Assembly (NCBI GenBank): GCA_964016885.1
Contig: OZ024750.1
Location: 26,660,001-26,724,000 of the forward strand
Source: Eledone cirrhosa
Taxonomy: Eukaryota
Direction of reading: 5' to 3'
Length of the DNA stretch: 64,000 nucleotides
In this document: piece after piece, positions 5,005-55,978 of the stretch
Layout of the letters: the number at the start of each line of letters is the position of its first letter
How positions within the stretch are numbered: the stretch's first letter is position 1
Position numbers and translations under genes: made by a program
The notes under the pieces: generated by a model
Told to the model about the DNA's origin: nothing
Databases searched by the model: none
Seen by the model: only the letters and a program-made list of their open reading frames with translations

Positions 5005-5134
5005 AACCAAATAAATAATTATATTTTTTCAAAAATAAGACTCCAGTGGCATTTTCGATTTCATCATTTTTTCTTTATACTTTCACTCGTGTAGGACACC
5101 TCTGTTATTTTTCATTTTGTCAAAAAATCCTCAC

Positions 5135-5163
<29 letters not shown>

Positions 5164-5165
<2 letters not shown>

Positions 5166-5960
5166 ATCGGAGAAAGCTAATAGCGATACTCCGGCCAAAT
5201 TCCAACTCACTCAACAAACATTAAGAAATACTTGTGTATATTCCTAATTAAACGTTCGGGGTGCTAACTAATTGTATTGTGTGGAAAATTGGCTGTATCA
5301 TTTCATATGAGATATATCAAATAAATCTCTTCCCAGACAACTCGTTTCACTACAAGATTTCTACAAGTTGGGTGAAATTATACCAATTTATGTAGAAGTT
5401 TGTATAAGATCAAGAGATACTTATTCAAGTAGGCTCTTATAATTCTTCAGTGGGTGCCCAATAATATTAATATTGATAACCAAATCAACATCAATATTTA
5501 GCGATAATCACCATCAGTGCTTGAGGGAGCTGCTAGGTTGTTAGTCCAGCAGTTCTAAAGAAAATCTCACACTGTCTAGAAAATAGGAGGAAGGAGACTA
5601 CCGCCAAAAAACAATACATGCCCAGGTCAATGAATTCTGAAAAGAATTCAAGCTACGGGCTAGAACTCAATTGGATATGAAAAAATAATCATGTGCGCAG
5701 CGCTTGATGACACAGATATTTTCTCGGGCAAAATAACAGAATGAGCTACAAGAACAAACAATCAGTATTCATATAAAAAATAAACAAAGAGAGTCATACC
5801 TTATATCGGGAAAGTTCATATCTGTTGCTCCAAGAGTAAATATATAAATACATAATCGGAGAAAGCTAATAGCTATACTCCGGCCAAATTCCAACTCACT
5901 CAACAAACATTAGGAAATACCTGAATATATTCCTAATAAGGCGTTCGGGGTGCTAACTAA
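5164..5960 (+). repeat. Two direct copies of a ~107-bp repeat (5164-5270, 5852-5960)
   Basis: ataatcggagaaagctaatagc...ggggtgctaactaa occurs twice. Confidence 0.8.
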
Positions 5961-6011
<51 letters not shown>

Positions 6012-6384
6012 GAGCAAAAATGGCCAAGACTGCTGCTATGGTAACAGTCAGGCTGCTGTCTTCTTAACAAACCACTTTCCACTGATTGACCTCGATGTCA
6101 CGTGATTGATAATTTTGAATTTGCCACCGACGCAGTAGACAGTGATTTTCTCAATGGCTAGGAATTTAGTCCACGCCTTGCATTTTCCATCCACTGAATT
6201 ATTTTTGTATAAGTTCCCAGTGTCCACGTATTGCCTGGAAACTTAGCTGAGAATAGACTTCCCAGATGACGAAAGGCTTCTCTGTACACTTCTTCGGAAA
6301 GTATGTTTATTCCCTTTCAGAAACTAATTAGTTGGGAGTGAAATTTTAGTAAGTAAGTTAATTTTATAATTTTCTTATTTTACG

Positions 6385-6479
<95 letters not shown>

Positions 6480-22244: not shown

Positions 22245-24178
22245 TTGGGGAGGGTCATATTTGTGTAATATTGCCAGAATTAATAACAGAACACACTCAC
22301 TGTTTGGTTTGTTTTCGCTTTTCGCTTCTGTGTCTTTTATATCGGTAATTTAATTTATTCGGTCCTCAATGTTGCCATTGACTGACCGACGGTCAAAAAT
22401 AATACAGATACAATAAAGACACAAACACATATATATAGTTTATCATAAATCTTTCGTTGCACATCTGCAACATCGTCAGTGGTGCTATTGTTTCCTCCCG
22501 TTACATTGTATGTCTACGTCACTATTATTTAGTCTGTCTATATATTTATTTATTTATTTGCTTGTTTGTTTATTTTATTTTGTCTTCTTTGCGCATGCGT
22601 TTGCGTGTGTGTATAGTGTTTTGTTTGATGTGTGTTCGTGATTGGGTGACTAGTGTGTGTTTATATGTGTTTGTTGTTATTGTGCTTGTGTATGTATTTA
22701 TTTATTTATTTATCTATTTATTTATTTATACTTCTATTAGGTCAGTGTTGTTTGTTTGGGTGTTGTTGTTGTTATTCCATTCATTCTTTCTGTTTAGTCT
22801 TGGCCTTCTAAGTTCTATTTCACTGGCCTCTCTGATTTGCCTATCTGCTGGGTCATTTCTATGTTTAGATATTATTCTAATTTCTATGTTGTCTATGTTA
22901 CCGTCGTGTTGTTGTCTGGCATGTTCGTATAGTACTGACCCGTTTTTTCGTCCTTTTAGTTTCCCCCAGTGTTGGTCTATCCTTTCACCTATGCTACGAG
23001 CTGTCTCACCTATGTATGTTGTTGTCATGTTTCTGCAAGTACCCTCTGTACATCTTATGCTATAGACTACGTTTCTAGTTTTACAGTTTATCCGGGGTTT
23101 AACCTTACATATGATACCTATTAGTACAGTGGGTTTTCTTAAAAGGGTAGGTTTTGCTGATCAGGGATTTTATGGTGGTTCCTGGCTTTTCTACCACGTT
23201 ATTCTTTAAGTGGGTCTTTCTCAGGGCCTTTCTACACTAGTTAGCTAATTTCCCTCCAGGGGTGGCGTCCACAAACATGAAACTCTGGTATCTCTGGTTG
23301 TCGTACCATGAGGTGGCTTTCCCTATCTTATGTCTAGCCCTATCTAAGCTATTCCATGATTTGCTCCTGTATAATGGGCAAATTCCTTTCATGTCCAGTT
23401 CTATGAGGGTCTTATACTTCTCCATGGCTCCTTCATATACTCTGACTCTGTCCTTTGGTTGTAGCCAGAGAACTGCATGCGGTTGATGAAGTGTTGGATG
23501 TGTCTTTCTATTTCTGTTGGGTCGCACATGCGGGACACATTCTTCATCACTCGTACCAAATCTGCGATCAGAATATTAAACTTAGCACTACTGGACATTG
23601 CTGAGTTTTTGAGTATCAGGTATTTGGAGGCCATGGGTTTAGCATAGTGTGAGTTGAGAATTTGGGCTCTCTCGTCTATAGTGTTAATCCAGAGTTCGGT
23701 GTCTAATACAGGTAGTCTATTGTTAGCGTGTTTGGAAGGGAAGTCGATAGTTACAGTTATACTCTGGTGTATGGAATTAGATATCTGCTGGATGCTTTCC
23801 ATTGTGCTACGTTCTAAATCAAACTTGTTAGTGCTCTCTAGTGGGGATGTTCTTATAACTATATTGATATCGTCTACATTCCGTGAGTACATGATGAGGT
23901 CTATGGAGCTCTCATTAAGGAGATCTTTAAGTCTCCTTTCCCACCATACCATGAAAAGGTTGGCAACATCACCAGCTATGCTGACGCCAATGGCTGCTCC
24001 CTCATTTTGGGTGTAGATCTTCTTGTTGAACTTGAATATGTGGCCCTTTAGGGTAGTTTTGATACTAGCCCCTATTGCATGTGCGACCATTTTTCTTACC
24101 TGATCATTGTTTTGGGGGGTCCGTATAGCTTTGGTCCACCCAATCCACCTTGCCATGGGAGTCTTTTTTGCCATTGAG
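22245..24178 (-). mobile_element. Penelope-like element (RT plus GIY-YIG), 5'-truncated; near-identical to 54197-55978
   Basis: GAAIGVSIAGDVANLFM..YSRNVDDI..LPVLD; YIGETARSIGERIDQH..EASEI..LN. Confidence 0.92.
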
Positions 24179-24536
24179 TTATATATATATATATATATTC
24201 TATAGACTTCTGACTGAGAAATGCTCTCAGAACTGACCAATGGGAAGTTTGACACTTTTTTTATTATTTTGTTCCTTTAACACCTTGTCCCTTCTGTCAT
24301 TTTATAAATTTTTAAAGCTAACTCCAACAATAACAACACTTAGAATGAGGAATGTTCTAATAACTGACCAATAAGAGGAGAAGAGGACCTTTGACACTGA
24401 AATTCGTTTGTTTGAATTCATATGATTCCAGTTCCTCAGTGAAATAACAACCCAACCAGGAACTGGGCATATCAGAGTATTGACAATATTATACACCTCA
24501 ACAACATATGTACTTGTCTATATCATACTAATTCAA

Positions 24537-29051: not shown

Positions 29052-30720
29052 TACCTGGTTGATCCTGCCAGTAGTCATATGCTTGTCTCAAAGCTTAAGC
29101 CATGCAAGTGTAAGTTCATGCCGTAAACGAATGGTGAAACCGCGAATAGCTCAGAAACCGGACCTAATCCTCGGGACCGTATTCCTCACCGCGAGGAGAG
29201 TGGATAACTGTGGCAATTCTAGAGCTAATACATGCAACTGAGGCCGCGATCGCAGGTCGCACCCGGGAGTCGGGTTACAAACGCGCAGCATTCGTCGCTG
29301 TCGTCGTTCCGTCTTCCCGCGCGGTCCCAACAGACCACGTCGACACGGTCGGCCTTCGCATTGGTCGCGGCGCAAATATTAGACTGAGACCGACGACGCG
29401 TCGAATGCCGGCAGCGCCGTTCGCAGTTCGCTGTGTGCGGTCGCGCGGCCTCGCGAATCAATTCGACTTTGGTGACTCTGCATAACTGTCAGTACGATCG
29501 CACGGGCTTAGAATCGGTTCTGACCTTCGCGCGACGGGTCCCCCGCGAGTCCACCCTATCAACTGTCGACGGCCCGGTAAGTGCCGACCGTGGTGGCAAC
29601 GGGTAACGGGGAATCAGGGTTCGATTCCGGAGAGGGAGCATGCGAAACGGCTACCACATCCAAGGAAGGCAGCAGGCGTGCAAATTACCCACTCCCGGCA
29701 CGGGGAGGTAGTGACGAAAAATAACGACGCGGGGCTCTGTCGAGACCCCGCGATCGGAATGAGTACACTTCAAATCCATTAACGAGGATCGACCGGAGGG
29801 CAAGTCTGGTGCCAGCAGCCGTGGTAATTCCAGCTCCGGTAGCGTATATTAAAATTGTTGCGTTTGAAAAGCTCGTAGTCGGAATTCGGGTCTCGAAAGC
29901 GCGCTGCGTCGTCAGCGCGCTCGTGGCGACGGCGCCGTTGTCGTTCGCGCGCTGCGCGTCGACTTCGGTCGTCCGTTCGCACTCCCGGCCCTATTCGCCG
30001 GTGCGTGCGCGGTCGGGCCACAGAGCTCTGCGTGCATCGCCGCTCGGCGTCACGGTGCGGACGGCGCGTTTTTACCTTCTTGCTTCGCTTCTTGCTTTCT
30101 TCTTGCCTATTTTCCGTTGCGCGATCGGGGACGACGCGACGACGGCGCTTTGCTTTACCGCGGGCGTTGCCGTTCGCCTCTCGTTTTCGTCGCCGCGCTC
30201 CGGTCAGGGCTTGGGGTTCGTCTCGCTTGGCTTTATAGAGGTTCTTACGTCGTCGTGCCGTCACCTCGCCGCGGACGCGCGTTCACCTCGTGGTTTTGTT
30301 TTTCTCTGTCTACGCGGGTGCCTTTTTCTTTTCGAAAGGAGAGGTTCGTCGCCAGGGTTGGACACGACGGTGTGACCGGTTTCGTCGTCGTCGGCGCGTC
30401 GCTTTCCTGCGGCCGCCGTTTGTCGTCGTCGTTCCGTTTCACCGCCGATCCGCACGGTTCCTCCGAGGGTGCTCTTTACCGAGTGTCTGAGGCGGCCGGT
30501 ACGTTCACTGTGAAAAAATTAGAGTGCTCAGAGCGAGCCGCACCGGCTCGCATGGAATGATGGAAAATGGAATGATGGAAAATGGAATGATGGAAAATGG
30601 AATGATGGAAAATGGAATGATGGAAAATGGCCTCGCCGCGCGTCATCCGTCGGTCTCCGTTCACGACGAAGCAATGATCGAAGAGAGCGATCGGGGCCAC
30701 TCGTATTGCGACGTTAGAGG
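29052..30720 (+). rRNA. 18S rRNA: 18S rRNA 5' half (truncated, pseudogenised), with expanded V2 and V4
   Basis: TACCTGGTTGATCCTGCCAGTAGTCATATGCTTGTCTCAAAG; GGAGAGGGAGC..CCACATCCAAGGAAGGCAGCAGG; GTGCCAGCAGCC; conserved sequence stops after GTTAGAGG. Confidence 0.95.
30552..30630 (+). repeat. 5 x 15-bp tandem repeat ATGGAATGATGGAAA inside 18S
   Basis: Five exact units plus ATGG where 18S normally has one ATGGAATAATGGAA motif. Confidence 0.95.
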
Positions 30721-31551
30721 GATCGGTCGCGCGGCACGTCTGTACGCGAAGCGGTGAACCGGTACGGGGCTGTAGCGTTGGCGTCGGACTCGACGTTCGA
30801 GCGTCGGTCGGGTGGCCGGTTTACGCCCGTTTCGTTGCGTTAGTTTCGTTTTTCCTTGCCCTTCTTTCGGTTGGCGGTGAGGAGAGGGAGGAGGAAGGCG
30901 GCGGCGGCGGCTGCGGGTTGGTCGCGCGGAGGCGGACGGGATTGAAAGATTACCGCGGAGGAGGGATGAAGGCGCAGCAGACGGAGAGGCTTGTCGCCCG
31001 TAAGGGCGGCTTGTTTTTTTGCCCTGCTCGCTTTTGTTTTGTTTATTTCGGTTTTTTTTCTTTCCTTACTGTTCGTCGCTGCCGGCGGCTCGCGCGTCGT
31101 CGTCGTCGTCTTTTTTTCTTCGTTTTCTTCGTTTTTGTCGGTCGGAAACAAAAACGGGGGGCTTGGCGAGGCAAGCATGCGTAAGCGAGCGGCGTTTCGG
31201 TCGCTTTTTGTGACGTTCGGTGCGTAGTGGGCGCGAACAACACGGCTCCACGCCCGGGACACCGTGGAGCGACACGGCTTCGGGATCGTTGGCGCGTCGG
31301 TAGCTTCTTTCTTTCTTCTTCGCGAGGAGGAGGGCGGTTGCCGAGACGCGCGGCAGGCGTTCGGCCGGCGGCGAACAGTCAACTCGGAACTAGTACGGAC
31401 CGGGGGAATCCGACTGTATAATTAAAGCAGAGAATCGCGTAGCCGACCGAGCCGCATAGACGCGATGTGATTTCTGCCCAATGCTCTGAATGTCAAAGTG
31501 AAGAAATTCAACCAAGCGCGAGTAAACGGCGGGAGTAACTATGACTCTCTT
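30721..31551 (+). rRNA. 28S rRNA: 28S rRNA fragment (expansion segment D8 to the R2 site)
   Basis: GGGGAATCCGACTG..TAATTAAA..GTGATTTCTGCCCA.TGCTCTGAATGTCAAAGTGAAGAAATTCAACCAAGCGCG.GTAAACGGCGGGAGTAACTATGACTCTCTT; the D8 assignment of the GC-rich 5' part is by position. Confidence 0.9.
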
Positions 31552-31734
31552 TCCGGCGCCACCCTTGACGTGGGAAGAGAGCTTAAGTCCGTGGTTTGAG
31601 CTGTACGAGAGAGGCAGCTCTACCCCGCTTCCCTTTTTTATTTATTTATTTTTTTTTTTGCGGTGGTTAGGGTTGACTCGGCAGGTTTTACCATTCTCGA
31701 GTGGTCGGCCACATAAGACGAACAAAAAGGCGCC
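31543..31734 (+). ncRNA. Candidate HDV-like ribozyme at the 28S/R2 5' junction
   Basis: P1 GACUCUC (28S, from -13)/GAGAGCU with G.U at the start; P2 ggcgcc 31555-60/31729-34; P3 CCC/GGG closing the 7-nt loop UUGACGU; candidate catalytic C at 31723; several deviations from consensus. Confidence 0.4.
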
Positions 31735-34700
31735 TAAACTATGATGAATAACAATTCTGAATTCATACGGCAGCTGGGGGCCGAAAAGCCAGCGACCGGA
31801 GGGGTCGGGATGAGCCCTTCCTGCCTGTCACAGCGTTCTGTAAAGGCCCGCTGTGACAATTGGCAACCATCTCCGAGGGCTGGCAATGAGCCGGGCCATC
31901 TCCCTCGTAAGAGCGCCGGCTCGCTGGACTTGACCCACCGGATGATTTAGATACCGACGATAGTAATTCGTAGGGATACTCCCGATAAATTTACTCTGGA
32001 GTACGTGACTCACGCTTTGGTCTTGAGAGGCAAGCAACTGCCGTCGTGGCTGGCGCGGGACCCCGTGGACCCTGTCTGCGGGGTCGTGCCGACGGTCGCG
32101 GGGGAGGATTGTCTCGAAATTCCCTGTGAGAGTATAATGTTGTCTTGCTCTTACTGTTCGCGTCACTTCTCGGGCCCTTCTGGCTGGGCGGAGCATTTGC
32201 TTCGCTGTCATGGGCGGAAAATAGTTTACAGGTGTAGCAAATCCTGTAGGGAGAGTTGTCACCTTCATTCGCTCAGGGTGCACTCTGGTCGATGCACGGG
32301 CAGGAGATGGGACGAGATGTTCGCCGGCTCGGACTTGGTCCACAGGTGTGGGGAGTGCGACCGTGCTTTCCGGACGGTCGCAGGAAGATCGCAACACGAG
32401 AGGCATCGCCATCTAGTGGTTGCCAATCGCCGCAGGATCGCGAAGCACGCGGAGGAGATCGGGAAGAAGCGTGCCTCTCGTGCTGCAGCGGCTTCTCGTG
32501 AGGCTGCTGCGCAGCCCCACATTCGTGTTGGCCGTGGATGTTGGTCCGAGGAGGAGGTGTCGATCCTTCTTGAAAAAGAGGGCGAACTTCTTAGAGCGGG
32601 GTGTCGTCGTGTCAATATTGGGATCGCTCCTTTCCTGCCCGGAAAGACTGTGAAACAGATTAGTTCGAAGAGGAGCGATCTGAATAAGAGGAAACGCTGT
32701 AAACAGTCCCCTACCCGTACTGCTGGGTCGTTAGAGAGACGTCCGCCTAGCCAGGCGAGTGGAACGTCCATCCCGGTTGCCTCCAATGTCGAGTGGAGGA
32801 ACTTGTTTGGCGATGCAACGGAGCCGGGACGTTCTCGGTGGTCCGTTGCGTTCGCGGAGTGTCTTGTCACATTTTGTGATGAGATCACGAACGAGAACTG
32901 GGATGCGTTCGCTGAGTGTGTCGATGAAAGGGTAAACAGCATGCGCTTGAGCAGAAATACACGGAGAAAGAGTAAATTTAAAAGGCCCTATAAGAAGGCT
33001 GGTAGAAGGAATGAAAAGAGACTGCTCTACGCTCGCTACCAGTTTTTGTACGACCGTGATAGGAAGAAGCTCCTTACAGTAATTTTAGGGGAAGAGATGC
33101 AGGGGGTGTGTCCAGTCCCGATGGCGGACATCGCGTCTGCTTACGAGGACAGGTTTTCCATCCCGGGACCGGATGTGGATCTTAGCGCGTATCCCGCAAC
33201 GGAGGTGGTGAACAACGACTCGCTTTTGCGTCCCTTCACCGTGTCCGAGGTTGTGGGTGCGCGTAGGTGTATGGATCCGTATTCGGCTCCGGGTCCCGAC
33301 GGAATCACGCCCCAACAGGTACGCGCAGTCGGCCCTGCAACTTTGGTGAACCTATTTCACTGTTTGCTGCTATCCGGGAGAGTTCCCGATGTCTTGAAGC
33401 TTGGAAGGTCAGTCCTCATTCGCAAACAGATGGACGGCCCGATCGATCTTTCCAATTGGAGACCCCTGACGATATGCTCTGCCGTGTATCGTTTATACAC
33501 CAGGATTCTCTCCAAAAGAATGCTTCAGGTAACACCTTTGAACCCTGCTCAAAGAGGGTTTATTAATGCGGACGGCTGCGGTGAGAATTTGTTCTTACTG
33601 CGGCAACTAATCGGACGCACTATGGGTAGGCTAGCTCGATTGAGGATTCGGCAGTTGAACGTGGCCTTCTTGGACCTTGCCAAGGCCTTCGATACGGTTC
33701 CCCACTCACTGGTGTTTGCGGGCATGAGAAGACTTGGATTTCACGAGCACATGGTCGAAGTCGTGAGAGGTCTTTACGAAGGCTGTGTTACAAAATTCTC
33801 GGTCGGAGCGGAAACGAGCAGAGCCATCGTGATCAGGCGAGGAGTACGGCAAGGAGACGCCCTCTCGCCCCTTCTCTTCAATATAGCCACTGATCCGCTG
33901 ATGGATGTTTTGTCCAATGACTGTGGCTTACGGATTGGAGAGTTGGGTTTGTCGAGTCTGGCGTATGCGGATGACAATGCCCTAGTATCCGGCTCTTCGG
34001 TGGAGATGCAGCGCCTAGTTGACAGGTGCGTGTCTTTCTACCGGGAGATGGGGCTAGCGGTGAATGTCTCCAAATGCGCCACTTTCTCGATAAAAGCGTG
34101 GGGGAAGTCTTTCTTGGTCAACACGGACTCTGCCCCTGAGATTGATGGTATTCAGCTCTTGAGAATCGACCCGGCAGAGAAGTGTTCCTACTTAGGTGTC
34201 AGTGTCGGCCGGTGGTCGAACCTCGAGATGAATGTTTCGGTGGAACACGTGTCACAGTGTATCGATAAGATTTGCTGTGCTCCACTGAAACCCCAGCAGA
34301 AATTCCATCTGTTACAACAATATTACCTGCCTAGATTGTTTTACACTTTAGCGCAGGTGATGCCTGTCCGGATTAAACTTGAGGAGCTAGACGCGGCTAT
34401 TCGCACGGGGGCACGTAGGATTATGCATCTGCATGGATCGACCTCGGTTTCCTTCTTATACTGCAGCAGACGAGACGGTGGATTGGGTCTCTGCCATCTG
34501 GCGAAATTAATCCCATCCATCGTGATTCGAAAGAATCTTCGTCTGTTGGTCTCTCGATATGACGCGGTTCGTCTCATGGCGGAATCGGCGGGCTTTGCTG
34601 TGTGGAACAGCGAGATAGCGATGCGTTATGGTTTGCCTCCGGTTCCGCCGGGCGCGACCACGTATGCGCCTGATCTTAGGCGGGAATACGCCGAGGCCTG

Positions 34701-35373
34701 GGCGTCTCAGCCCGTCCAGGGTGCGTGTGCGGGGTCGTTCAGGGGCGACCGAATCGGTAACGATTGGCTGCTCCGCCCGGGTGTGGTTTCTGAGGGGACC
34801 TTGTTAAGTTGCCTTAAACTGCGAACCAATACGTTTCCCACCCGGGAATGCCTGTCCGGGGGATCATTGCCTCAGGTTTTTTGGGGTTTTTTTTTGTGCG
34901 CGTTAGAGCCTAGAATCTCTCTTCCTATTTCCGACTAACCAATTAACCCGGTAAGTGGTCGGATGGATAATCCGAGTGACGGAGAAGTAGGACGACTCCG
35001 CCGGTTCCGCGAGTCCGGGCGTTCGTATTGGGTGCACGATAGCACGCCCTCACGCCCCGCTTCAGGGTTACGCGTTGTTATTATGTTATTAATGTTGTTT
35101 ATTAATGTTTATTAATGTTTTTTTATAATAGGAGAGTAGGAAACATAGGTCTCGAAGCGCGTTACTTACGGGTGTCCGAGCGGTGCACGACCACCTTATT
35201 TTAATTTATGAAACAGAACAAGGATTAGACTTTATCTACCGGAAGCGACAGGGGCACGCCGTTCATGCCATAGTGTGCTTGATGGCGTTGGCCCGTGGGA
35301 CCTCCCACTTTAAAAACTGGGAAAGGCGTCTTATGTTTTTGTGATCAAAACATAAGTTAAATGCCAGCTATCG
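31552..35373 (+). mobile_element. R2: R2 non-LTR retrotransposon (three-zinc-finger, R2-A-like) at the canonical 28S site
   Basis: Lies between 28S ..GACTCTCTT and TAGCCAAATGCCTCGTCATC; ORF carries ZF, Myb and RT. Confidence 0.95.
32005..34938 (+). CDS. R2 ORF: R2 protein: CCHH-CCHC-CCHH fingers, Myb, RT; C-terminal CCHC/RLE endonuclease missing
   Basis: CSYC..HLLRCH, CSKSC..HSGRC, CGEC..HERHRH, WSEEE..KTVKQISSKR, APGPDG, QRGF, FLDLAKAFDTVPH, GVRQGDALSP, YADD, YLGV, KLRTNTFPTR; in frame with ATG 31741 across one TAG. Confidence 0.93.
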   Translation: MTHALVLRGKQLPSWLARDPVDPVCGVVPTVAGEDCLEIPCESIMLSCSYCSRHFSGPSGWAEHLLRCHGRKIVYRCSKSCRESCHLHSLRVHSGRCTGRRWDEMFAGSDLVHRCGECDRAFRTVAGRSQHERHRHLVVANRRRIAKHAEEIGKKRASRAAAASREAAAQPHIRVGRGCWSEEEVSILLEKEGELLRAGCRRVNIGIAPFLPGKTVKQISSKRSDLNKRKRCKQSPTRTAGSLERRPPSQASGTSIPVASNVEWRNLFGDATEPGRSRWSVAFAECLVTFCDEITNENWDAFAECVDERVNSMRLSRNTRRKSKFKRPYKKAGRRNEKRLLYARYQFLYDRDRKKLLTVILGEEMQGVCPVPMADIASAYEDRFSIPGPDVDLSAYPATEVVNNDSLLRPFTVSEVVGARRCMDPYSAPGPDGITPQQVRAVGPATLVNLFHCLLLSGRVPDVLKLGRSVLIRKQMDGPIDLSNWRPLTICSAVYRLYTRILSKRMLQVTPLNPAQRGFINADGCGENLFLLRQLIGRTMGRLARLRIRQLNVAFLDLAKAFDTVPHSLVFAGMRRLGFHEHMVEVVRGLYEGCVTKFSVGAETSRAIVIRRGVRQGDALSPLLFNIATDPLMDVLSNDCGLRIGELGLSSLAYADDNALVSGSSVEMQRLVDRCVSFYREMGLAVNVSKCATFSIKAWGKSFLVNTDSAPEIDGIQLLRIDPAEKCSYLGVSVGRWSNLEMNVSVEHVSQCIDKICCAPLKPQQKFHLLQQYYLPRLFYTLAQVMPVRIKLEELDAAIRTGARRIMHLHGSTSVSFLYCSRRDGGLGLCHLAKLIPSIVIRKNLRLLVSRYDAVRLMAESAGFAVWNSEIAMRYGLPPVPPGATTYAPDLRREYAEAWASQPVQGACAGSFRGDRIGNDWLLRPGVVSEGTLLSCLKLRTNTFPTRECLSGGSLPQVFWGFFLCALEPRISLPISD

Positions 35374-36008
35374 TAGCCAAATGCCTCGTCATCTAATTGG
35401 TGACGCGCATGAACGGATCATCGAGATTCCCACTGTCCTTATCTACTGTCCAGCGAAACTACAGCCAAGTTGAGCCTGTTGAGGTTGACTCTAGTCCGGT
35501 TTTGTGAGGGCACACGGTAGGCGTAGCATAGGCGGGAGCAATCTTGCGTCTCTCGGCAGGCGGCAGCGTCGCTTGCGGGTCGCTTGCGGCTTTGCAGCGG
35601 CGTTCGCCATCTGTCGGGTACCGTGCGCGTTTGCGTCGATGAAAAACCGCCACTTCCGTAGTTTCTTCGCTCACTCGATTGAGAAGGGACGGGGCCGTCG
35701 CCGAGCGGTGGTTCATTTATCTGGTGCGAAGCGTGCGGTGCATGTCGCGCGCGCACACGTTGTGCGCCGACGCAGCCGATGCGCGACCCTTAGTCGAGAA
35801 CAGTGTCGGTCGGGGCGTTTGACTGGGGCGGTACGTCTGTCAAAGGGTAACGCAGGTGTCCCAAGGCGAGCTCAGCGTGGACGGAAACCACACGTTGAGC
35901 AAAAGGGCAAAAGCTCGCTCGATCTCGATTTTCAGTACGAATACGGACCGCGAAAGCGTGGCCCATCAATCCTTTCCGAATAGCGGCGAGCTATGCGTCC
36001 GCCGAGAA

Positions 36009-36047
<39 letters not shown>

Positions 36048-36070
36048 GGCCAATCGTTCGCAGCGACGTC

Positions 36071-36108
<38 letters not shown>

Positions 36109-36150
36109 CGAAGCAGAATTCGCAAAGCGTTGGATTGTTCACCCACTAAC

Positions 36151-36197
<47 letters not shown>

Positions 36198-36746
36198 TCC
36201 TACCGATGCATTGCGTGTAGGCGGCGGCGGTGGCGGCTGCAGCCACCTTCTCGAAGGCGGCTGCGGTCGGCGTCGCCGCCGGCAACGTCAACTCGGCTAC
36301 GGCTATCCCGTCCAGTACGAGAGGAACCGCGGGATCAGAGCAACGGTTTGCGCGCTCGTTCGATAGAGCGGTGGTGCCAGGCTGCCTCTGAGCGATAACG
36401 GCTGAACGCCTCTAAGCCGGAACCGTAGCCGGACCCGAGTTGTTTTTCTAAAGCGTCTCAACCTTTTTAAGGCGCATGCCTTAGTTTGGCGATTGCCGTC
36501 CGTTCGGCGAAGTCGCTTCCCTTTTCGGGGTGCGCGTCGTCGTCGGCGGCAGCGTCAGCGGAATTGCCATTCTGTGACGACTATGACTCGTCGTCGTCGT
36601 TGTCGTCCGTTCGATTTGTTGAAAGAGATCGAGACGAAAAGGATCGCTTGTATACGACTCGACTTGCCGTTCGGAGTGACGTGCTTAGTAGAGCAGCTAC
36701 CACACTGCGATCTATTGAGTCTCTTCTCACGAACGACACGATCCGC
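35374..36746 (+). rRNA. 28S rRNA: 28S rRNA 3' part (R2 site to 3' end), with a small internal deletion
   Basis: TAGCCAAATGCC; TTTGACTGGGGCGGTA; CCACAGGGATAACTGGCTTGTGGC; sarcin-ricin loop AGTACGAGAGGAAC at 36314-36327; GAGCAGCT..CTGCGATCTATTGA; 3' end approximate. Confidence 0.93.
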
Positions 36747-37138: not shown

Positions 37139-37455
37139 CTGTCTACACGTAAAACTAACTTGGAAGGCGGACGACGGATGGGCGGCGTGTATCACAGACA
37201 GACACACACACAGGCTGTCTACACGTAAAACTAACTTGGAAGGCGGACGACGGATGGGCGGCGTGTATCACAGACAGACACACACACAGGCTGTCTACAT
37301 GTAAAACTAACTTGGAAGACGGACGACCGATGGGCGGCGTGCATCACAGACAGACACATAGACAAGTCGTCAATAACTAAAACTAACTTGGAAGACGGAC
37401 GACGTGTATCACAGACAGACACACACACACGCTGTCTACACGTAAAACTAACTTG
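37139..37455 (+). repeat. rDNA spacer subrepeats, 76-bp unit, about 4 copies
   Basis: ctgtctacacgtaaaactaacttggaaggcggacgacggatgggcggcgtgtatcacagacagacacac.. starts at 37139, 37215 and 37291, followed by variant and partial units. Confidence 0.9.
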
Positions 37456-38256: not shown

Positions 38257-40134
38257 GTAGGGATGGGGGACTTCAATGCACATCTCAGTAAGGAGGGCAG
38301 TGAAGTCCTTGCTGGTACTTCCATAACAACACCAACCGAAATGTATGACTACTGAGAGACACCCTGCTGGAGGCGAACTTGATAGCGACCAACCTAAGGT
38401 TTAGGAAGAATCCGGGTAAGATGTGGACCTACATCTCAAATATGCACCTCTCCAAGTCCCAGATTGATTTCATTCTGGCGAGGAAAATGTGGCGGAATAG
38501 TGTTCTGAACACAGAACCTACAACTATTTCAGTACACTGGGCAGTGACCACCGGCTTGTTATTAGTGAGGTCCGGGTGAGCTTAAGAAAGAGCAAGGCTC
38601 AGCACCGGAGGGCATCTATGAATGGGGAGCTTTCAAGGAAGATGATAAGCTACAGGAGAGGTTCACAGTGGAAGTGAGGAACAGGTTCAGTGCTCTGTGT
38701 GGAGAGTCAGAGGAGAGAGAGATTGGATGGACTGAGGAGAGTGTGACGAGGTGATACGGGTACTTCACCAATGCAGTGGCGGAAGCAAGTGAAATCCTGG
38801 TGCCGAGGAAAAAGAACAAAAGGAAGAACGTCAGCTCTGCAAACCCAAAAGTGTGTGCAGCCAGAGAACACCTGAGAGCTGCCAAGGACCAATTCTATGC
38901 TGATCCTACGGAGGAGATGATGGAGACTGTGGAGGTGACGAGGGAAGAACTCTGTACTGCTTACACTGAGGCCAGAGAGGAAGCACTGATAGAGAAGATC
39001 AGAAGTGTGAAGATAGCGGTTGACAGATCTGGATGTAAGGAGAGCTGGATGATCATCAACGAGATCACAGGGAGGAAGAGAAGGTGTTCGAGTCAGATCC
39101 AGGGAACGGGGCCCGAGGATAGGAAGAGGAAATGGCTAGACCATTTTAGGACCCTACTAGGAGAGCCACCCTCCACAGCCCAGAGCACTGGGGAGATCAG
39201 GCGGCTGTTTGAGGAACTGGATATTGAGACAGAGCCCTTCACCAGAGAGGAGCACAAGAGAGCCAAGAAGAGGATCAAGGAGGGCAAGGCTCATGGACAA
39301 GAGGCATCAGAGGTGATAAAGAGGTGTGATTTTGATGATATCATCCAGGGGTTCTGTAACCGGGCACTGGAGAAAGGAGTTGCCCCGAATCAGTGGAGGA
39401 TCAGTAACATCGTCCCAGTGTCAAAGAAGGGAGATCTCTCTAACACCAACAACTACAGGGGGATCTCACTGACGTCACTTGTGGCAAAGATCCTCAACAG
39501 GATGATTCTTAACAGGATCCAGCCTGAGATGGAGAAGAAGCTCAGGGACAACCAGAACGGCTTCAGAGAGGGAAGATCAACCACCAGTCACATCCTGATG
39601 CTGAGGAGGATATTAGAGGGAGCTAGAGCAAAGTGAATTCCTGCTGTCATGGTTTTCATTGACTTTAGGAAGACCTTTGATTCTGTGGATCGTCACTGCC
39701 TGATGAATATCTTTCAGGCTTATGGAATCCCCAAGAAGATAGTGGACCTGATATCATTGCTTCACACCAACACCAAAGCCCAATTTATTACACCTGATGG
39801 GATGACAGAGTTCTTTGAGATACTGGCTGGAGTGCTCCAGGGAGCCACATTCGCTCCCTACCTTTTTATCATTCTAGTGGACTATTGTATGGGCCTTGCA
39901 CTGGAGAAACACCAGGACTCTAGCTTTACTGTAGCACCGGCTCAGAGCAGGAGAGTTAAGGCGAAAAAGGTATCAGATGCTGAATTTGCCGACGACATAG
40001 TTTTGGTGACAAATACAGTGAAGGAGGCAGAGGATTTGATGCGGGAGGTTGAGACTGTGTCGATGAGTGTGGGGCTGAGAATGAATGAGACTAAAACAAA
40101 ATATCTGGTAGAGAATGTTGAGAATGATCACTAG
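38255..40134 (+). mobile_element. RTE-like LINE (APE C-terminus plus RT), disrupted
   Basis: MGDFNAH, SQIDFIL, NYRGISL, QNGFR, FIDFRKTFDSV, GVLQG, EFADD; stop at 39634-39636. Confidence 0.9.
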
Positions 40135-40158: not shown

Positions 40159-41575
40159 TTATGGTGTCTTTGTAACCGGCCCTGTGCAGTGCCTCATTAT
40201 ATTATTTGGCGTGCTGTTTAAGGTGAATACGCGTTTGGATACCTCTTTAACTATGGCTTCTATGACTGACTTAGGGTGATTCGATTGCCTGTTCGCATAT
40301 TGCATGTTTTCGTTGGGCTTATGGTACGGTCTGTGGATGCCCGTATTCATTTCCAAGGTAACGTCCAGGAAATTGACCGTCTTAGTGCTAGTGTCTATTG
40401 TCACGGATAAGCCATGTTGTTTAAAAACATGCGATATGCGCTTCCTCATACGCTCCATCTGACTGGGGTTAAGGGAACGGAAGGTGAAAAGTGCGTCGTC
40501 TCTGTATATTCCACCTGCGATCCCTGGGATCTCCTCCGTCGGCCTATGGATGAGATATATCCCCACAAGGTCGGTCCACTGCGCCGAGTCACTTGACCCC
40601 ATGGTGATATTGAAACAGTCGGGTCTGCCGCCCCTCTCCCATAACTTGTCTTCGAAACTAATTAGCGTCTTTCTGGCTGCTACTATGAGGTTGGTCTCGT
40701 CCCTAGTGAGGCTGGATCTGGCCATGGCGCTTATGAGGGCCTTATTGACTAGTATCGGAGATACTGACGCATAATAGCTATCTATGTCTAACTGAATAAA
40801 ATTTACTTGGTGTTTGTCAGCTATTAAGGAGAACCAGTCAATTACCTCCTTAGTGGAGGTCCATAGGCTAAGTTTAGTTTTGTTTCTAAGTACCGGTATT
40901 ATCCTATCTATAATATTATTGCTGGTCTTGCCTAGGTCGGATTTGGAAGGTGCTATTAACCTACCCGGTAGTTTAGTTTTAAAGTCTAATTTATGATCCT
41001 TAATAGATATCCGTGGTTTACTAGGTACATATACCTCGGTCCTATCCTCTAGTCCTAGCCCTCTCAGTATACTTTTTGTCGTGGCGTTAATACTATCTAA
41101 ATTTGTCTGTGCTGTGGTCTTATAGTTTATCCTAATCTCTTTCCCGAAGCAATCATTGTATGTAAAATGGTCAAGCATGTATACATTACCAGTTTTATCC
41201 GAGGGCACGAGTAAATCCTTGCATATTTCCGTGATTTTCATGGTGGATCCGAGACTTTTGTGATATTTTGTCCGTCGTGCACTATTCCTATGGAACTTGA
41301 TGTTACGAACTATGTTGACTATACGGTTTTCAACTTCCTCCAGCTGTGCATTATGTGGTGGGTCACTTCTCGATCTAAATATCCGCTTTAGGCGTTCCTG
41401 AGGGACGTCTGGCGCGTGTTTTTGTGTCCGCCTGTCGTGTTGAAATGCGCGCTACCTCATGCGTCTGATGAACGAGTTGGTGTGGTATATCAGCAGGCCC
41501 ATATACGTGTTATCAGACGGGATCGGTATGTCTTTCATGGAAGAAGAGTAGTGGAAATTTTCCAAGGCGAATCGC
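40159..41575 (-). mobile_element. Penelope-like (Neptune-type) element, N-terminus plus RT, 3'-truncated
   Basis: SMKDIPIP..FIRRMR; SDKTGNVY, IKDHK..F..RLIAP.KSDLG, DIDSYY, TMGSSD.A..DLVG, IYRDD, FLDVTL, PYHKPN..SNHP. Confidence 0.9.
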
Positions 41576-46256: not shown

Positions 46257-49200
46257 GTCAACGCGATCAGTCGCATATTTGGGCGGGGGAGAGTATTTAT
46301 TAAATTTAAGATGAATACTATCTCCGACAGTAATGCCACATCTACAGTCATGTTGAATAACTGGTTATTCTTCTAACTATATCTTTTGAAGACACCTTTT
46401 ATTCGAATTGGTCGAGATATCCGACTAAATACATAATTCATTTTACAAGGATTTGCTACAAACAGCATGGCTGAACACAACATCAACAACAATATTAAGG
46501 AAGTACCGAAAACAAATAACAAGGAAGGTAAACAAACTATATTCAGTTGTAGCTCCAGAAGAAACCGAAATTATAAATCGCATTTCTCTTGGAGTTGCGA
46601 ACTTAATAATGATTTATCTAATTGTTATAAAATGGCAAAAAACAATCCCTCCATTGGCTATATGAACAGAATGAAGCTACACTGTGACAAAATACACCCA
46701 GAGCTAAATTATTTCACAGCGAAACAATTACGCCAACAAGCGTCGTTTGTTGAACGTAAACATAAGATAAATATTATTAATTATAAGTCCCCCACAACAA
46801 ACATGTTATCAACAACACGTGCTACAGGTCGCCATGCTACTAGACTTCCTAGCAGCCAGGTCGAACAGCGCCTTGAAACAACTTTGCCTGTAAGAAACTT
46901 GACACAACTTGTACCATCTAAGTCTACCTCGAATGCTGGGGAAAACACTATCGATAATAATAATAATCGAAGAAATTTGACACCACGTGTACCATCCAAG
47001 TCTACCTCGACTGTAGTGGAAAATACTATCGATAATGATAATAATCAAAAGTATAAACAATTGAAATTTTCCCTCGACGAAATCTTCCAGGAAGAAATTA
47101 ATTCATGTATAAATATCTCTCTTGCTGAACGTATTAAAACGACAATGTTTCATAAAAAAACAAATAATGAAATATTACGTGTTATTGACGAAATAGGGGA
47201 TGAATATTTACGACGGATAAAAACCCAACATTTTGGCAAATCAACGCCTGTTTATATGCCTTAGCAACGACAGTGAAGTATTATCTTGGTGATAGCAGAG
47301 ATATCAACAAGAACAGAACACCACCAAAAATACCATCATATATAACTAAAAGAGAAAAAAAGATTGATGACCTACGAAAAAACATAGGATATGTGACAAT
47401 GCTCCTTACATGCAAACAAACACAAAAACACCTCATTCCTCACCAACAAAGAGTGAAAAATAAAATAGAGACGATGTTGGGTAACAGTAGAACCAGAACT
47501 CTCCAATATAAGCTGATCACCATTAAACAAGAATTTTGAGCTGTTAGTGAAAAACGCCGATACCTGAAGAAGGTAAATGAAAGAAAAGTGCTTAATAAAA
47601 GATTCAGACGAAACCAAACATCAGTCTATAGAGATATGATGGGCAAAATAATAAGTGTCACTGAGGCCCCATCCCAGAAAGACATAGATTCCATTTGGAG
47701 CAAAATATGGTGTGAAAAGAACAATTTCAACCAATATGCAGTGTAGCTAAGAGAAATCCGAAAGAATTATTGCTCCTACACTACAACAAAAGCATACGAA
47801 ATAAGTGAGGGTACCCTTTAAACTGTGATAGGAAAACTCCAAGATAAGAATACACCAGGAAGAGACACGATTGTCGGCTACTGGTACAAAAAAATGATAT
47901 TCTATCTGAGGTATCTTACTGACCTCTACCAAAATGTTTTTAAGGGATATACACTTATACCAGAATGGTTGGCATTAGCAAAAACATTACCCTATCCCCA
48001 AGAAAAAAGACACCCACTTGGCAAAAAACTAACAACCCATTGCATGGCAGAACCTGATATATAAGATGTATACAGCCTACCTGAACCTATTCCTCCAAGA
48101 TCACTGTGAAATTAATAACATCATCACAGATGAACAAGTAGCTGGAAAGAAAGGAGTTTGGGGATGTGCTGAACAACTCCCAATCAACAAAATTGCGATG
48201 TCGGAGGTGCGACAACTTAGGAAGGATATGGCTACAGTCTGGCTGGACTACAGGAAAGCTTTCAATTCTGTTCCCCACTCTTGGATGATAGAGGCCCTCT
48301 AACTTGCTAAAGTCCCAGACATTATTGTCAGAGCCATAGAGAGACTCTCTTCTTCTTGGGCTACTATCTTAAGGTTAAATACAGGGAGGGAGGATTCTAT
48401 TTTCACTGATAAAATAAAATATTGCACGGGTATATTTCAGGGAGACAGTCTCTCTGTGATATTATTCATCTTGTCATTAAACCCCTTGTCCTTTTTGTTC
48501 AAGAAATGTGAGGGATACATCATTGGCTCACAGGAGGACAGAAATACGAACCTAACCGATAATTTCTTTGAGGACGATCTGAAACTCTATGCCAAGAACA
48601 TGGATGGGATGAAGAAAAATCTTGACCTGATTACAACGTTCTTAAAGGATATAGGAAAGGAGTTTGGCCAAGATAAATGCTCATACATGACTGTAAAGCG
48701 GGGAAAAACAACAACCAAATCTAGCAACATTGTCATCAATGGCCTGGGGATAGATGAGAACATATCCTATAATGGTATCTGTAATAAAGAACGCATAACC
48801 AGGGAATACTACACCCGATTAAGAAAAATCTGGTCATCGGAACTCTCTGCGCAAAACAAAACAGTGGCTCACAATGTGTTTTCTGTGCCTGTCCTAACAC
48901 CAACGTTTGGAATACTCAATTGGACGATAGACGAAATCCGAGCAGTTGATGTTGGAACTCGAAAGACACTAAAAACACCGGAAACTTCCACATCAACACT
49001 GACATAAACCGCCTTTACTTGAAACGTAAGCAGGGAGGGAGAGGCCTAACATCAATCGAAGCAACAATTGAATGTCGCATCATATCTCTCCGACAACATC
49101 TACGAACCTCGAAGCGTAGGAGCCCGTTTCTCGAGAAAGTCTATCTACATGAAACAGATAAGATCATGAGAGTTGGGAAGAAACTCTTCGAGAGATATTC

Positions 49201-50315
49201 CCTGTGTGATAATCAAAAACTCACACCCAGGGAAGTCGCTCAGCAGTATCGCAGTGAATCCATGGCTGAAAAACTACATACTTATCAGCAAAAAATCATC
49301 CATGGATATGTTGCCAGGAAGCTCCAGAGTGAGAGTAATATAGATAAGGAAAGTAGTCTATCTTGGAACAACAACCGCTATATTGGCTCACACTTTGAAG
49401 GATACGCTTTTGCAATTCAAGAACAGGAGATTAACACGAAATACCTGATTCACAAAAAGATAGGGATGCAGGCAAAACACCTAGATGTGATAACAAGTGC
49501 AGACTCTGCAGAACTAACATCGAGGATCTCACCTATGTCATGAGCAACTGTCCAAAGATGTCAACGCGGTACTCTCTACCTATGAGGCATGATGTAGTGG
49601 CCAAAACACTGTACAATGCAGTTCGTAAAAAAAATAGCCCCGATAATAAACATTAAAAGCTACAGCAATGTGGAAGACATCCATGTACATAATATGAAAG
49701 AGTACTGGTGGAATGTTCCAGTAAAACCCCCAATAAAATTCAGGCATAACAGACCAGATATTATGATATGGGACAGGGAGAAGAAAGCATTCACACTAGT
49801 GGAAATTAGCTGCCCAGCAGGTGCCAATATAGTATCAAAGATTAGTGAAAAGGAGAATATTTATGCAGAACTGATGAGAAATCTGCAGATACTCCACCCT
49901 GATTACACCTTCAGATTTATGCCTGTGATTATTGGGGTACTGGGGTATGTTAGTAACTGCCTCAATACAAATCTTGAGAAGCTATGTTTCACAGGAACAG
50001 AAAGAACACAACTAGTTAGGAAATTACAAGTACAATCCATTAATGGAACAGTAAAAATATGTAAACCATTCCAAATATTTTGCATCTAATAACTGCATAT
50101 ACACATGTACAGATGCAAAGCATATACACATGCACACATACAACTCAAAACATCCCCATCCACACATACAATAGCATCCATATCTACACATGCATGCATA
50201 CATACATATCTACCTAGTTGATGTTGTGTAAATTCCAATGAGAGTCTTGTGTCTATGTGAGAAACCGACTCTCTCTCTATTGGTAAAACTTTGTGAAATT
50301 ATAAAACCAGAAGAG
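46257..50315 (+). mobile_element. R4/Dong-type RLE non-LTR retrotransposon, full length but disrupted
   Basis: N-terminal Myb-like WSCELN..GYMNRM..QLRQQ; WLDYRKAFNSVPHSW, GIFQGDSLS, FEDDLKL, GGRGL, AIQEQEINT, CRLC...C, RHD, RPDI..VEISCP; many stops and frameshifts. Confidence 0.9.
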
Positions 50316-50567: not shown

Positions 50568-53100
50568 ATGTATGTAGATTTATATATGGGCTCTAGTGAT
50601 TCTGCCCAAATTACCGATCTTGTGGGCCTCTTTCTTCTATTTAACATAAATGCTTCTTTTCCCCACCTTAAAGGTGGTTTAAATCGTGATGACTGTCTTC
50701 TTCTTTCTACTAACCTTAGCCTATCAGAAATTGAAAAAAATAAAATACTTATTAGAACTTTCCTCAAAGACTATTATAGTCTCACTATTACATTTGAAAA
50801 CACAAGTAAAGTAGTTAATTTCCTTGATATAACTTTAGACTTATCTACGGGTATCTACCAACCTTACCATAAACCTAACCAAAACTTACATTACATACAC
50901 TCACAATCTAATCACCCTAGATCTATCCTTAAAAACCTAGCATATAATATCTCACTCAGAATTTCTAACCGTTCATCTAACCAGGATGTAACGAAGCTTT
51001 AGCTAGAAGTGGCTACAAAAACAAATTAGTATATATACCTTGTACCAATAATACTACAAACATACAACCCAATATTACTAACAAACACCAAATGAAATAT
51101 ACACACCTAAATGCCACTCACACTATACCCCAAAATAGCAACTTAAAACTTAATTTCTCTACCTCCTCTAATATACAATATAATAACTTTCAAAAAACCA
51201 TTCATCCTAATATTCCAATATATGTTAATAACATTACTAACAAAATTCCTAATAATCAGGCTAAAACACCTAAATCAGTGAATCTAACTAAACATATCTG
51301 TAATAAAATCACTAATACTAATTCTCTTAGTAAACATCAGGATACATCGTATAAAAATAAAAAACAACATCGAAACCGTAATAGACGAGTTACTTGGTAT
51401 AATGCTCCATTTAATCTACAAATTAAAGATAATATACCTAAAAAATGTGTTACTATCCTAGAGAAAAACTTCCCGCCAAACCATAAATACCATCAAATTT
51501 TAAATAGATCAACGGTCAAATTCTCCTACTCCACAACCAAAAATATACAACAAAATATAAGTGCCTAGCATATAAATGTAAGAAAAACCATGAATATACC
51601 ACCAACACATCAAACTAACCATAATACTAAAATAAACGACAGCAAACCACCATCTCATTCACATACAACAAGTCAAGAAAATTCCACACCTAATTTGACT
51701 ACCTCCCCTGATATAACATTCACGAAAGGTTGTAACTGTAGAAACAAAGCAAATTGCCCATTAAAAGGAAATTGCCTTATTAATAACATAGTATATAAAT
51801 GTAAAATTAGCACTAAGGACTCAACTTATTCATATATAGGAGCTACTTCTAACCAATTTAAAGTAAGATTTAATACCCACAAACACAGTTTTTAAAATGC
51901 CGCATTAGCTAAGACAACATCCTTAGCTGAAATAATTAATAATTATAGAAAAAAGAATATCGATTATAACATGACCTGGAGTGTGCTCAAAAGTGCCACC
52001 CCTTATCAAAATAATAGATATGAATGTAGATTATGTTCCCAGGAACTTTTTGAAATAATGAAATCTAAGGATATCCTATTAAATAAACGACAAGAATTAA
52101 TTATATCGTGCAATCATAGAATTAGAAAAACTTTCAAATATTATAAACCTAATTAATATATACTTATATTTTACAAATTATTTTAATTAATTTTTTTAAA
52201 TTAGTTAACCTATAATTAATATTCTACTACTAAGAACTGCATAATTTTATTTCCCTTTTACAGCTATCTTTTCCTAAAATTTATACCAATAAGTATACAT
52301 ATAAACTATTTTAATTTCCTGATATGAATCTAAATTCCTTGTAATCTATATAAGTTTGTTATTTCTCACTAATACATTTATCCCCCAAAAAAAGTTTTTT
52401 TCCTTCGTTTTTAACAACATTCTTTAATAACATCTAACTCTTATTTAGCATATCTATATGAATTAATATAAATTTATCCCTATAAATATATCTATCAATT
52501 AAATTAATTTAATTTCTTTTTATAGATCTAAATTTCTTATGTTTTAAATAAGATTGATATTTTTCACTAACACATTTATCGTAAAATGTAATTCTCCTTA
52601 GATTTTAACATTAGCATTATTCTTTAATAACATCAAATTTTCGTGTACCTTTCACCGGATTGACCTATTTTCATTCCCAACGTAATCTTTTCATTCAAAA
52701 TACTCTTTCCATTCAAAACTGAAGTCTGCATTCCTCTACCCCTAAATCAAATTTCTACTATTACCATTCTATCAACTTGACCACTTACTACTTTTCTATT
52801 GGTCAATTCAAAACCTGTTCCCAAACAGACCTATTATATTAAATCTTTGTTGGGTTTTTTCAATAAACAAATATTTTATTTCTGATCCTTACGGGGTCGA
52901 TAAAATAAAGTACCAGAAATATACTGGTTATTGATGGCCTTGTGCCTAAAGTAGAAACAATTATTTCTGAAGAGAGCATATATATGTGTAGGTATGTATA
53001 TTCCCTCTGATAGTTTGTAAACTTTTTACATAGATCTATATAATATACATACCAACACACACATATATATCCTAGAAACGATCGTAAAATGATGAATTTT
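50568..53100 (+). mobile_element. Penelope-like element 3' part (RT C-terminus, GIY-YIG, AT-rich 3' UTR, hammerhead)
   Basis: MGSSDSAQITDLVG, NRDD, FLDITL, SNHP; CNCRNKANCPLKGNC..VYKC..YIG; CRLCSQE. Confidence 0.88.
52960..53093 (+). ncRNA. Type I hammerhead ribozyme with long stem II
   Basis: attattt-CTGAAGA-..atatatatgtgt/acacatatatat..-GAAAC GATC GTA-aaatgat; 7-bp stem I; palindromic stem III. Confidence 0.65.
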
Positions 53101-54196: not shown

Positions 54197-55978
54197 TTAA
54201 GTTCAACGAGAAAATCTACACCCAAAATGAAGGAGCAGCCATCGGCGTCAGCATAGCTGGTGATGTTGCCAACCTTTTCATGGTATGGTGGGAAAGGAGA
54301 CTTAAAGATCCCCTTAATGAAAGCTCCATAGACCTCATCATGTACTCTCGTTATGTAGACGATATCAATATAGTTATAAGAACATCCCCACAAGAGAGCA
54401 ATAACAAGTTTGATTTAGAACGTAGCACGATGGAAAGCATCCAGCAGATAGCTAATTCCATACACCAGAGTATAACTGTAACTATCGACTTCCCTTCCAA
54501 ACACCCTAACAAATGACTACCTGTATTAGACACAGAACTCTGGATTAACACTATAGACGAGAGAGCCCAAATTCTCCACTCACACTATGCTAAACCCATG
54601 GCCTCCAAATACCTGATACTCAAAAACTCAGCAATATCCAGTAGTGCTAAGTTTAATATTCTGATCGCAGATTTGGTACGAGTGATGAAGAATGTGTCCC
54701 GCATGTGCGACCCAACAGAAATGGAAATACACATCCAACACTTCATCAACCACATGCAGTTCTTTGGCTACAACCAAAGAAACAGAGTCAGAGTATACGA
54801 AGGAGCCATGGAAAAGTATAAGACCCTCATAGAACTGGACATGAAAGGAATTTGCCCATTATACAGGAGCAAATCATGGAATAGCTTAGATAGGGCTAGA
54901 CATAAGATAGGGAAAGCCACCTCATGGTACGACAACCAGAGATACCAGAGTGTCATGTTTGTGGACGCCACCCCTGGAGGGAAATTAGCTGACCAGTGTA
55001 GAAAGGCCCTGAGAAAGACCCCCTTAAAAATAAAGGTGGTAGAAAAGCCAGGAACCACCATAAAATCCCTGATCAGCAAAACCTACCCTTTTAAGAAAAC
55101 CCACTGTACCAATAGGAAATGTATCATATGTAAGGTGAACCCCCGGATAAACTGTAAAACTAGAAACGTAGTCTATAGCATAAGATGTACAGAGGGAACT
55201 TGCAGAAACATGACAACAACATACATAGGTGAGACAGCTCGTAGCATAGGTGAAAGGATAGACCAACACTGGGGGGAACTAAAAGGACGAAAAAACGGGT
55301 CAGTACTATACGAACATGCTAGACAACAACATGATGGTAACATAGACAACATAAAAATTAGAATAATATCTAAACATAGAAATGACCCAGCAGATAGGCA
55401 AATCAGAGAGGCCAGTGAAATAGAAATTAGAAGACCAAGGCTAAACAGAAAGAATGAATGGAATAACAACAACACCCAAACAAACAACACTGACCTAAGA
55501 GAAGTATAAATAAGTAAATAAAATTAGATAAATAAATAAATAAATACATACACAAGCACAGTAACAATAAGCACATAAACACACACTAGTCACACAGCAA
55601 ACATAACAATATACACACACGCAAACGCATGCGCAAAGAAGACAAAATAAAATAAACAAACAAGCAAATAAATAAATAAATATATAGACAGACTGAATAA
55701 AAATGGCGTAGACATACAACACAACAGGAGGAAAATATAACACCTCTGACGATGTTGCAGATGTGCAACGAAAGATTTATGATAAACTATATATATGTAT
55801 TTGTGTCTACATTGTATCTGTATTATTTTTGACCGTCGGTCAGTCAATGGCAACATTGAGGACCGAGTGAGTTAGATTACCGATATAAAAGACAGCGAGA
55901 AGCGAAAACCAACCAAACAGTGAGTGTGTTCTGTTATTAATTCTGGCAATATTACACAAATATGACCCTCCACAAGTA
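54197..55978 (+). mobile_element. Penelope-like element (RT plus GIY-YIG), 5'-truncated; near-identical to 22245-24178
   Basis: YSRYVDDI; CTNRKCIIC..NVVYSIRC..YIGETARSIGERIDQH; one stop at 54514-54516. Confidence 0.92.

Follow-up and report, generated by a model that had tools for sequence, protein, structure and literature searches.

R2 retrotransposons of molluscs were first reported in PMC5035012, as far as its accessible text goes, and ten are counted in the accessible text of PMC13580325. In the portion of PMC13188248 available to us, three zinc fingers are typical of R2 lineage A, yet finger number is not lineage-defining, and the R2s of Mollusca fall in its three-finger branch, with some in the other. 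The R2 ribozyme is described in the accessible part of PMC3774820 as cutting 9 to 36 bases upstream, inside the 28S sequence. Across the literature searched, R2 SIDEs were described only in PMC3414825. In a search of the open literature, none of the papers listed for the rDNA of Eledone cirrhosa dealt with R2, and the octopus and cephalopod R2 matches concerned SINE and piRNA topics.

Here, we analyzed a window of 64,000 nt from E. cirrhosa (assembly GCA_964016885.1, contig OZ024750.1, positions 26,660,001 to 26,724,000), and all coordinates below are positions on its forward (+) strand unless stated otherwise. An R2 element with a complete 5' end occupies 31552..35373 (+), between 28S rDNA ending in CTCTCTT at 31551 and 28S rDNA starting with TAGCC at 35374, to which its 3' end is directly joined; the four target bases AAGG are gone at the upstream junction. 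What remains of the 3' UTR (34854..35373, +) has no poly(A) tail and carries a terminal hairpin at ~35326-35365 that is common to a family of short inserts described below. A single stop-free frame of 995 codons (31951-34938) encodes three N-terminal zinc fingers of the CCHH-CCHC-CCHH type found in lineage A (32146..32412, +; 32146-32211, 32233-32295, and 32347-32412) and a Myb domain (32539..32685, +, end approximate), both placed by alignment to solved R2 proteins, followed by an R2-type reverse transcriptase domain (RT; 33430..34203, +) with YADD at 33964, recognized by Pfam RVT_1 (E 1.2e-30, residues 494-751). The nearest solved structures are R2 proteins (PDB 9nl2, 9dou, and 9nl3; E 1.6e-114, 375-387 bits), compared with 219 bits for 8gh6, which we take to be the one-finger R2 protein of Bombyx, and ~75 bits for LINE-1, scores that favor proteins of lineage A. 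Only three of 7,995 scored candidates matched at E<=1e-40 in a protein search with the window R2. The first-pass annotation, made from the sequence letters, had placed a 5'-complete R2 at the canonical 28S site and assigned it these fingers, Myb, and an RT; the 28S flanks on both sides, the motif positions, Pfam, and the solved relatives bear out each of these points, whereas its statement that three fingers define the R2-A group is contradicted by the accessible portion of PMC13188248.

The window element is already known, being catalogued as R2-1_ECi under Eledone cirrhosa in Table S2 of PMC13188248 (Hassan et al. 2026). By eye, and over the first 400 characters of each table cell with the middle lying outside the comparison, the entry agrees with the window element across 400 residues of protein and 400 bases of DNA from the start, in the two flanks, and over the opening 400 bases of the 3' UTR, and the lengths it lists (995 aa, 3,818 nt, and 438 nt) are those of the window element. 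The earlier hope of a novel element, for which an identical catalogued copy had been named as the refuting finding, is therefore refuted, while the same row confirms the cephalopod host that had been proposed. Neither this row nor the accessible portion of the text mentions a loss of the endonuclease or an early stop.

Both lesions are nonetheless present in the window copy. The match of its frame to R2 proteins ends right after TRECL, before the zinc knuckle, and no CxxC was found after residue 900 of the frame. Comparison with sibling copies, which carry 630-633 extra bases encoding a CCHC knuckle, a PD..D..K endonuclease, and the native stop, places a deletion junction at 34853..34854 (+), where the CCHC zinc knuckle, the restriction-like endonuclease (RLE), the native stop, and the first part of the 3' UTR are gone. 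Searching the species' own genome, with 40 of 82 candidates scored, gave at least 83 matches; every long match is interrupted at element position 3303, and among the long matches only the window copy has the deletion. Contigs of runs X1 and X4 extend into the missing part, and none of the 16 read or contig pieces listed, from a set with 192 further pieces, bridges the junction, which hence rests on the assembly. RAD reads X5 and X6 covered 10 of 30 and 8 of 30 bins, with only 33 reads each. The second lesion lies upstream, in the true frame, which starts at ATG 31741 (ATG ATG) directly after the predicted ribozyme and runs into an in-frame TAG at 31948-31950, its codon 70 (31741..31950, +); all five translated siblings have Q at this position and read through. 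Of the ~950 uninterrupted codons through the RT that had been annotated, the stop-free stretch stands, at 995 codons, but the true frame is closed by the codon-70 stop and its knuckle and endonuclease are deleted, leaving no full frame from start to endonuclease. The window copy is an R2 by descent, not a working R2, and is unable to nick a target by itself now.

The surrounding rDNA has decayed as well. The 5' part of an 18S rRNA gene (29055..30720, +; Rfam SSU model 4-605 and 733-974) is followed at 30720..30724 (+) by the junction of a 5,354-bp deletion, delimited by BLAST to L014, that removed the 3' 18S, ITS1, 5.8S, ITS2, and 5' 28S. The 28S rDNA upstream of the R2 site spans 30724..31551 (+), and that downstream spans 35374..36744 (+; Rfam LSU) with small deletions. 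Relative to L014, a complete rDNA unit with a complete 5.8S, a 5,114-nt 28S, and an empty target, the host unit has 4.1-4.8% substitutions (4.2% in the 18S part and 4.1% in the downstream 28S). It stands solitary in the assembly (G000:C10), amid microsatellites and other retroelement debris, and is not an array unit.

At the element's 5' end, an HDV-like ribozyme with a double pseudoknot is predicted at 31545..31734 (+), in which the 28S bases CUCUCUU (31545-31551) would form P1 with AAGAGAG, accompanied by P2 GGCGCC(A), P3 CCC/GGG, L3 UUGACGU, a J4/2 with C at 31723, and a one-pair P1.1. Counted on 21 copies, with four second-lineage (lineage B) rows misaligned at P2, 85.4% of cells were paired and 14 double changes were recorded, compared with 4.3 in shuffles (0 of 500 reaching the observed value) and at most 6 in slid controls. 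Covariation lies in P2, where five of seven pairs have double changes, P3 being almost invariant, and P1 is lost in copies no longer preceded by 28S. The structure was drawn by hand from the same sequences on which it was counted, and related sequences can beat shuffles, so these counts are support for the ribozyme and not proof. Rfam reported no ribozyme family at this 5' end, even at E 5. The window copy itself lacks the top P2 pair and has CAAAA where other copies have CUAAU, a changed J4/2. A P1 drawn from 28S bases -25/-28 (GGGAG) was discarded, as P3 is followed by AAGAGAG. The modeled cut would fall within 28S, ~11 bases upstream of the insertion site, leaving C at +1, which is unusual; it may instead fall at -13.

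Seventeen distinct siblings of the window copy (L042_1 and L041_2 being one copy, counted once) were 77-92% identical to it over a 1,395-nt RT-thumb stretch, with dN/dS of 0.13-0.30 against the window copy, and the differences between copies of this lineage show purifying selection. Their tree is ladder-like, with terminal branches of ~1% in the youngest group and 2.3% for the window copy. All 19 loci with window-lineage protein matches have frame changes, stops, or truncation, and L028 carries its own, different deletion in the region lost from the window copy. Across the genome, 74 endonuclease matches were found (150 of 457 candidates scored), of which one lies in an open frame of >1,000 codons, and that one belongs to a second R2 lineage; no window-lineage copy with a full open frame occurred among the copies scored in the assembly. 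Together, these patterns suggest that the window lineage had a long period of activity, leaving stranded copies behind. The 'recently active' lineage of the first-pass annotation does not follow from the window copy, since the latter has lost its endonuclease and carries an early stop, and no full-frame copy of the lineage was found in the assembly.

We are highly confident that the window holds a disabled three-finger R2 copy, without endonuclease and with an early stop, that probably arrived by target-primed reverse transcription and has since degenerated within a stranded rDNA unit. In agreement with established R2 biology, the parent element would have been co-transcribed with rRNA and released by its 5' ribozyme at the predicted cut inside 28S; the endonuclease of the then-intact parent would have nicked the 28S target, and reverse transcription primed from the nick would have placed the window copy there, to decay in a unit outside the arrays. 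The 995 codons free of stops and frameshifts and a terminal branch of 0.023 imply that the copy is not ancient, which counts against its reading as a dead copy. It is, however, very improbable that the lesions are assembly artefacts and that this locus holds an intact, active element. The 34853/34854 junction is indeed unbridged in the read pieces listed, but two separate lesions, the ribozyme changes, and the decayed host unit agree with one another, siblings such as L028 have different deletions of their own in the same region, and a contig of run X1, which may be the source sample of the assembly, covers 31776-32545, including the stop codon, in 770 bases with one difference from the window anywhere in the contig.

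The lineage as a whole could still be active through intact copies in unassembled rDNA arrays, the window copy and its siblings being only stranded fossils; we regard this as a tentative possibility, somewhat doubtful on present evidence. It concerns the lineage and is compatible with a dead window copy. Only one uninserted target site is present in the assembly, which indicates that most of the true rDNA arrays are absent from it and that intact copies could lie concealed there. This under-assembly, the ~1% terminal branches of the youngest sibling group, and short inserts bearing the window-lineage 3' hairpin within units that match the uninserted one at 99.7% identity all speak for continued activity. 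Against it stand the lack of an intact copy among those scored and the contigs of run X1, of which 114 of 191 were 90-95% alike with no very deep near-identical class in the pieces listed, contig depth being a poor measure of copy number. The intact second lineage is better evidence of recent R2 activity in this genome than is the disabled copy in the window.

At this site, the short inserts make up a noncoding family. The downstream target is matched exactly at 22 places, comprising 12 short inserts, 4 window-lineage copies, 3 second-lineage copies (one weakly assigned), 1 uninserted site, 1 8-base scar, and 1 tandem 28S fragment; because assemblies retain variant rDNA units but merge uniform ones, 12 of 22 should not be read as a genome fraction. 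The 15 full inserts are 1,153-1,373 bp long and 81-100% identical, with a longest stop-free frame of 99-174 codons. Their similarity is to the window lineage, in its 5' end and in two blocks of its 3' UTR, and not to the second lineage, and they keep the predicted HDV-like ribozyme. With R2-derived 5' and 3' ends, no coding capacity, and the R2 site, the family fits the SIDE definition in the accessible text of PMC3414825. The terminal 3' hairpin, shared with the window lineage, had 94.1% of cells paired over 17 copies and 29 double changes, a value reached in 0 of 500 shuffles. Junctions at the 5' end vary among close copies, being plain in some, with upstream duplications in L013/L020, L030, and L077 and a deletion in L027, and the last bases differ; these varied junctions and the covarying hairpin point to independent insertions with conserved RNA structure. 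The window lineage's predicted 5' ribozyme and its 3' UTR persist in the SIDE family, which probably spread by borrowing the window-lineage protein in trans. A look-up of RNA datasets listed none with the SIDE, which is neutral as to its expression.

Alternatively, the family may descend from a single deleted R2 that recombination multiplied passively along with entire rDNA units. This would account for copies that are 99.9-100% identical in neighboring units (L015/L016 and L022-L024), and has a precedent in what was proposed for the degenerate R2 of stick insects (PMC4370867, in its accessible text). We consider this unlikely for the family as a whole, given that close copies have several different 5' junctions and different last bases, that compensatory changes occur in P2 and the 3' hairpin across SIDE and R2 copies, and that copies span 81-100% identity. 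Passive duplication of rDNA units probably explains part of the copy number of what we still read as a mobilized SIDE.

The second R2 lineage is represented by L018 (G000:C2:166887569-166892544), which has an unbroken frame of 1,214 codons encoding three fingers, Myb, RT, knuckle, and endonuclease, and is 48% identical to the window protein. The 28S on its two sides matches the uninserted unit at 99.2% and 100% identity, which is the strongest hint of a recent insertion in this genome; other copies of the lineage are broken. Two N-terminal motifs of the L018 protein were not found in the accessible part of supplementary file 7 of PMC13188248, where the species occupies one row. Mixed head-to-tail arrays occur on C18 (~32 kb), C7, C3, and C2. 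At two junctions on C18, a window-lineage 3' end abuts TAGCCAAC at the 5' end of a second-lineage element, and in L030 a SIDE abuts the same 5' end (TAGCCAAC) with one change. The second-lineage 5' end begins with the target-like TAGCCAAC, by which it would rebuild a usable site and let other elements line up ahead of it in tandem. Local duplication had a share in the C18 array, too.

Taken together, these data favor, with some reservation, a three-player system at a single 28S site, consisting of a dying or dead window lineage, a SIDE that outnumbers it at assembled sites, and an intact second R2 that rebuilds the site via TAGCCAAC for tandem stacking, the SIDE being the first from R2 outside Drosophila in the literature searched. 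If this is true, the intact 1,214-aa protein of the second lineage is an uncatalogued candidate for insertion assays; the window element is no gene-insertion candidate because it is both catalogued and disabled. The catalogued sequence for the species has no endonuclease, and the intact second R2 was not found in the accessible part of that table. Provided that they are absent from databases, the SIDE family, the intact second lineage, and the stacked arrays would count as new representatives of known types. As a natural element, the SIDE would mark the RNA parts that an R2 protein needs in trans, namely the 5' ribozyme, ~60 bases of coding start, two 3' UTR blocks, and the terminal hairpin, and its composition is relevant to designing templates for R2-based insertion and to the persistence of nonautonomous elements in rDNA.

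Among solved relatives, the lineage A proteins of PDB 9nl2, 9dou (R2Tg), and 9nl3 have the same finger-finger-finger-Myb-RT order as the window protein and, unlike it, continue into a zinc knuckle and endonuclease, before both of which the window copy ends. Octopus and scallop entries in the accessible part of the PMC13188248 table share the ribozyme core by eye, with P2 and P3 compensated. Of these, the Octopus elements R2-1_OVu, R2-1_OSi, and R2-1_ORu also have AAGAGAG after P3, three fingers, Myb, and the same site as the window R2; they differ in their UTRs and in having frames of 1,155-1,276 aa, long enough to be complete. For the short family, the closest described system is the R2 SIDE of Drosophila willistoni (accessible text of PMC3414825), which likewise combines a 5' ribozyme and a 3' UTR with no coding frame and a partly unrelated middle at the same 28S site. 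In contrast to that 529-bp element, the Eledone family is 1.15-1.37 kb long, has a predicted ribozyme P1 built from 28S bases, an expanded P4, and no poly(A), and includes some older copies that hold ~90 bases of upstream 28S inside.

The most frequent occupant of assembled target sites in the Eledone cirrhosa assembly (G000), at 12 of 22, was a short, non-coding, SIDE-type derivative of the window's R2 lineage (lineage A). Copies of 1.15 to 1.37 kb were found at the R2 site in loci L013, L015-L017, L020-L027, L030, L076, and L077, with SIDE-type loci distributed over contigs C2, C3, C4, C6, C7, C12, and C25. The 3' hairpin of this derivative covaries, and its predicted HDV-like ribozyme has an expanded P4. 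Older SIDE copies contained an internal stretch of upstream 28S target of ~90 bases (L025:6564-6654, L027:3272-3344, L075:4099-4267, and L078:4029-4100); in L075, this internal target was occupied by an R2 of a second lineage, lineage B.

An intact, three-finger lineage B R2 was located at L018:2575-7543 (G000:C2:166887569-166892544), where the frame at 2764-6405 encodes 1,214 aa. A search with two of its N-terminal motifs did not find this element in Table S2 of PMC13188248 (2026). Its host unit is nearly identical to the uninserted rDNA unit, which holds the only empty target site in the assembly (L014:3891-9004) and has a 28S of 5,114 nt with large GC-rich expansions. Elsewhere, the target centre of one unit was replaced by an 8-base scar (L029:2380-2394), and L062:1501-3015 comprised a tandem run of 28S fragments of ~70-87 bases, beginning at the R2 site.

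Head-to-tail arrays at G000:C18:15044170-15076176 (L033-L036), C7:29285770-29296370 (L075, L046), and C3:332083200-332095000 (L041, L042) contained a mixture of lineage A, lineage B, and SIDE copies. In one case within these arrays, a piece of lineage B interrupted a copy of lineage A, and it did so at the position that matches the start of the deletion in the window's element. Older R2 copies with differing 3' ends, in L043 (3' junction at 6905), L032:2306-3346, and unplaced contig C386 (20000-40500, a cluster of several), possibly represent further extinct sublineages.

Within the window, a 15-base unit was repeated 5.3 times in the decayed 18S (30552-30630), and a 76-base unit formed 4.3 tandem copies shortly beyond the 28S end (37139-37455). 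Broken retroelement frames lay at 23401-24276, 38755-40134, 40159-41451, 46437-50089, 50981-51568, and 54517-55509. Three pieces among them matched Pfam RVT_1; others, which had no Pfam match, we take by eye, from their motifs, to resemble Penelope or RLE-type elements.
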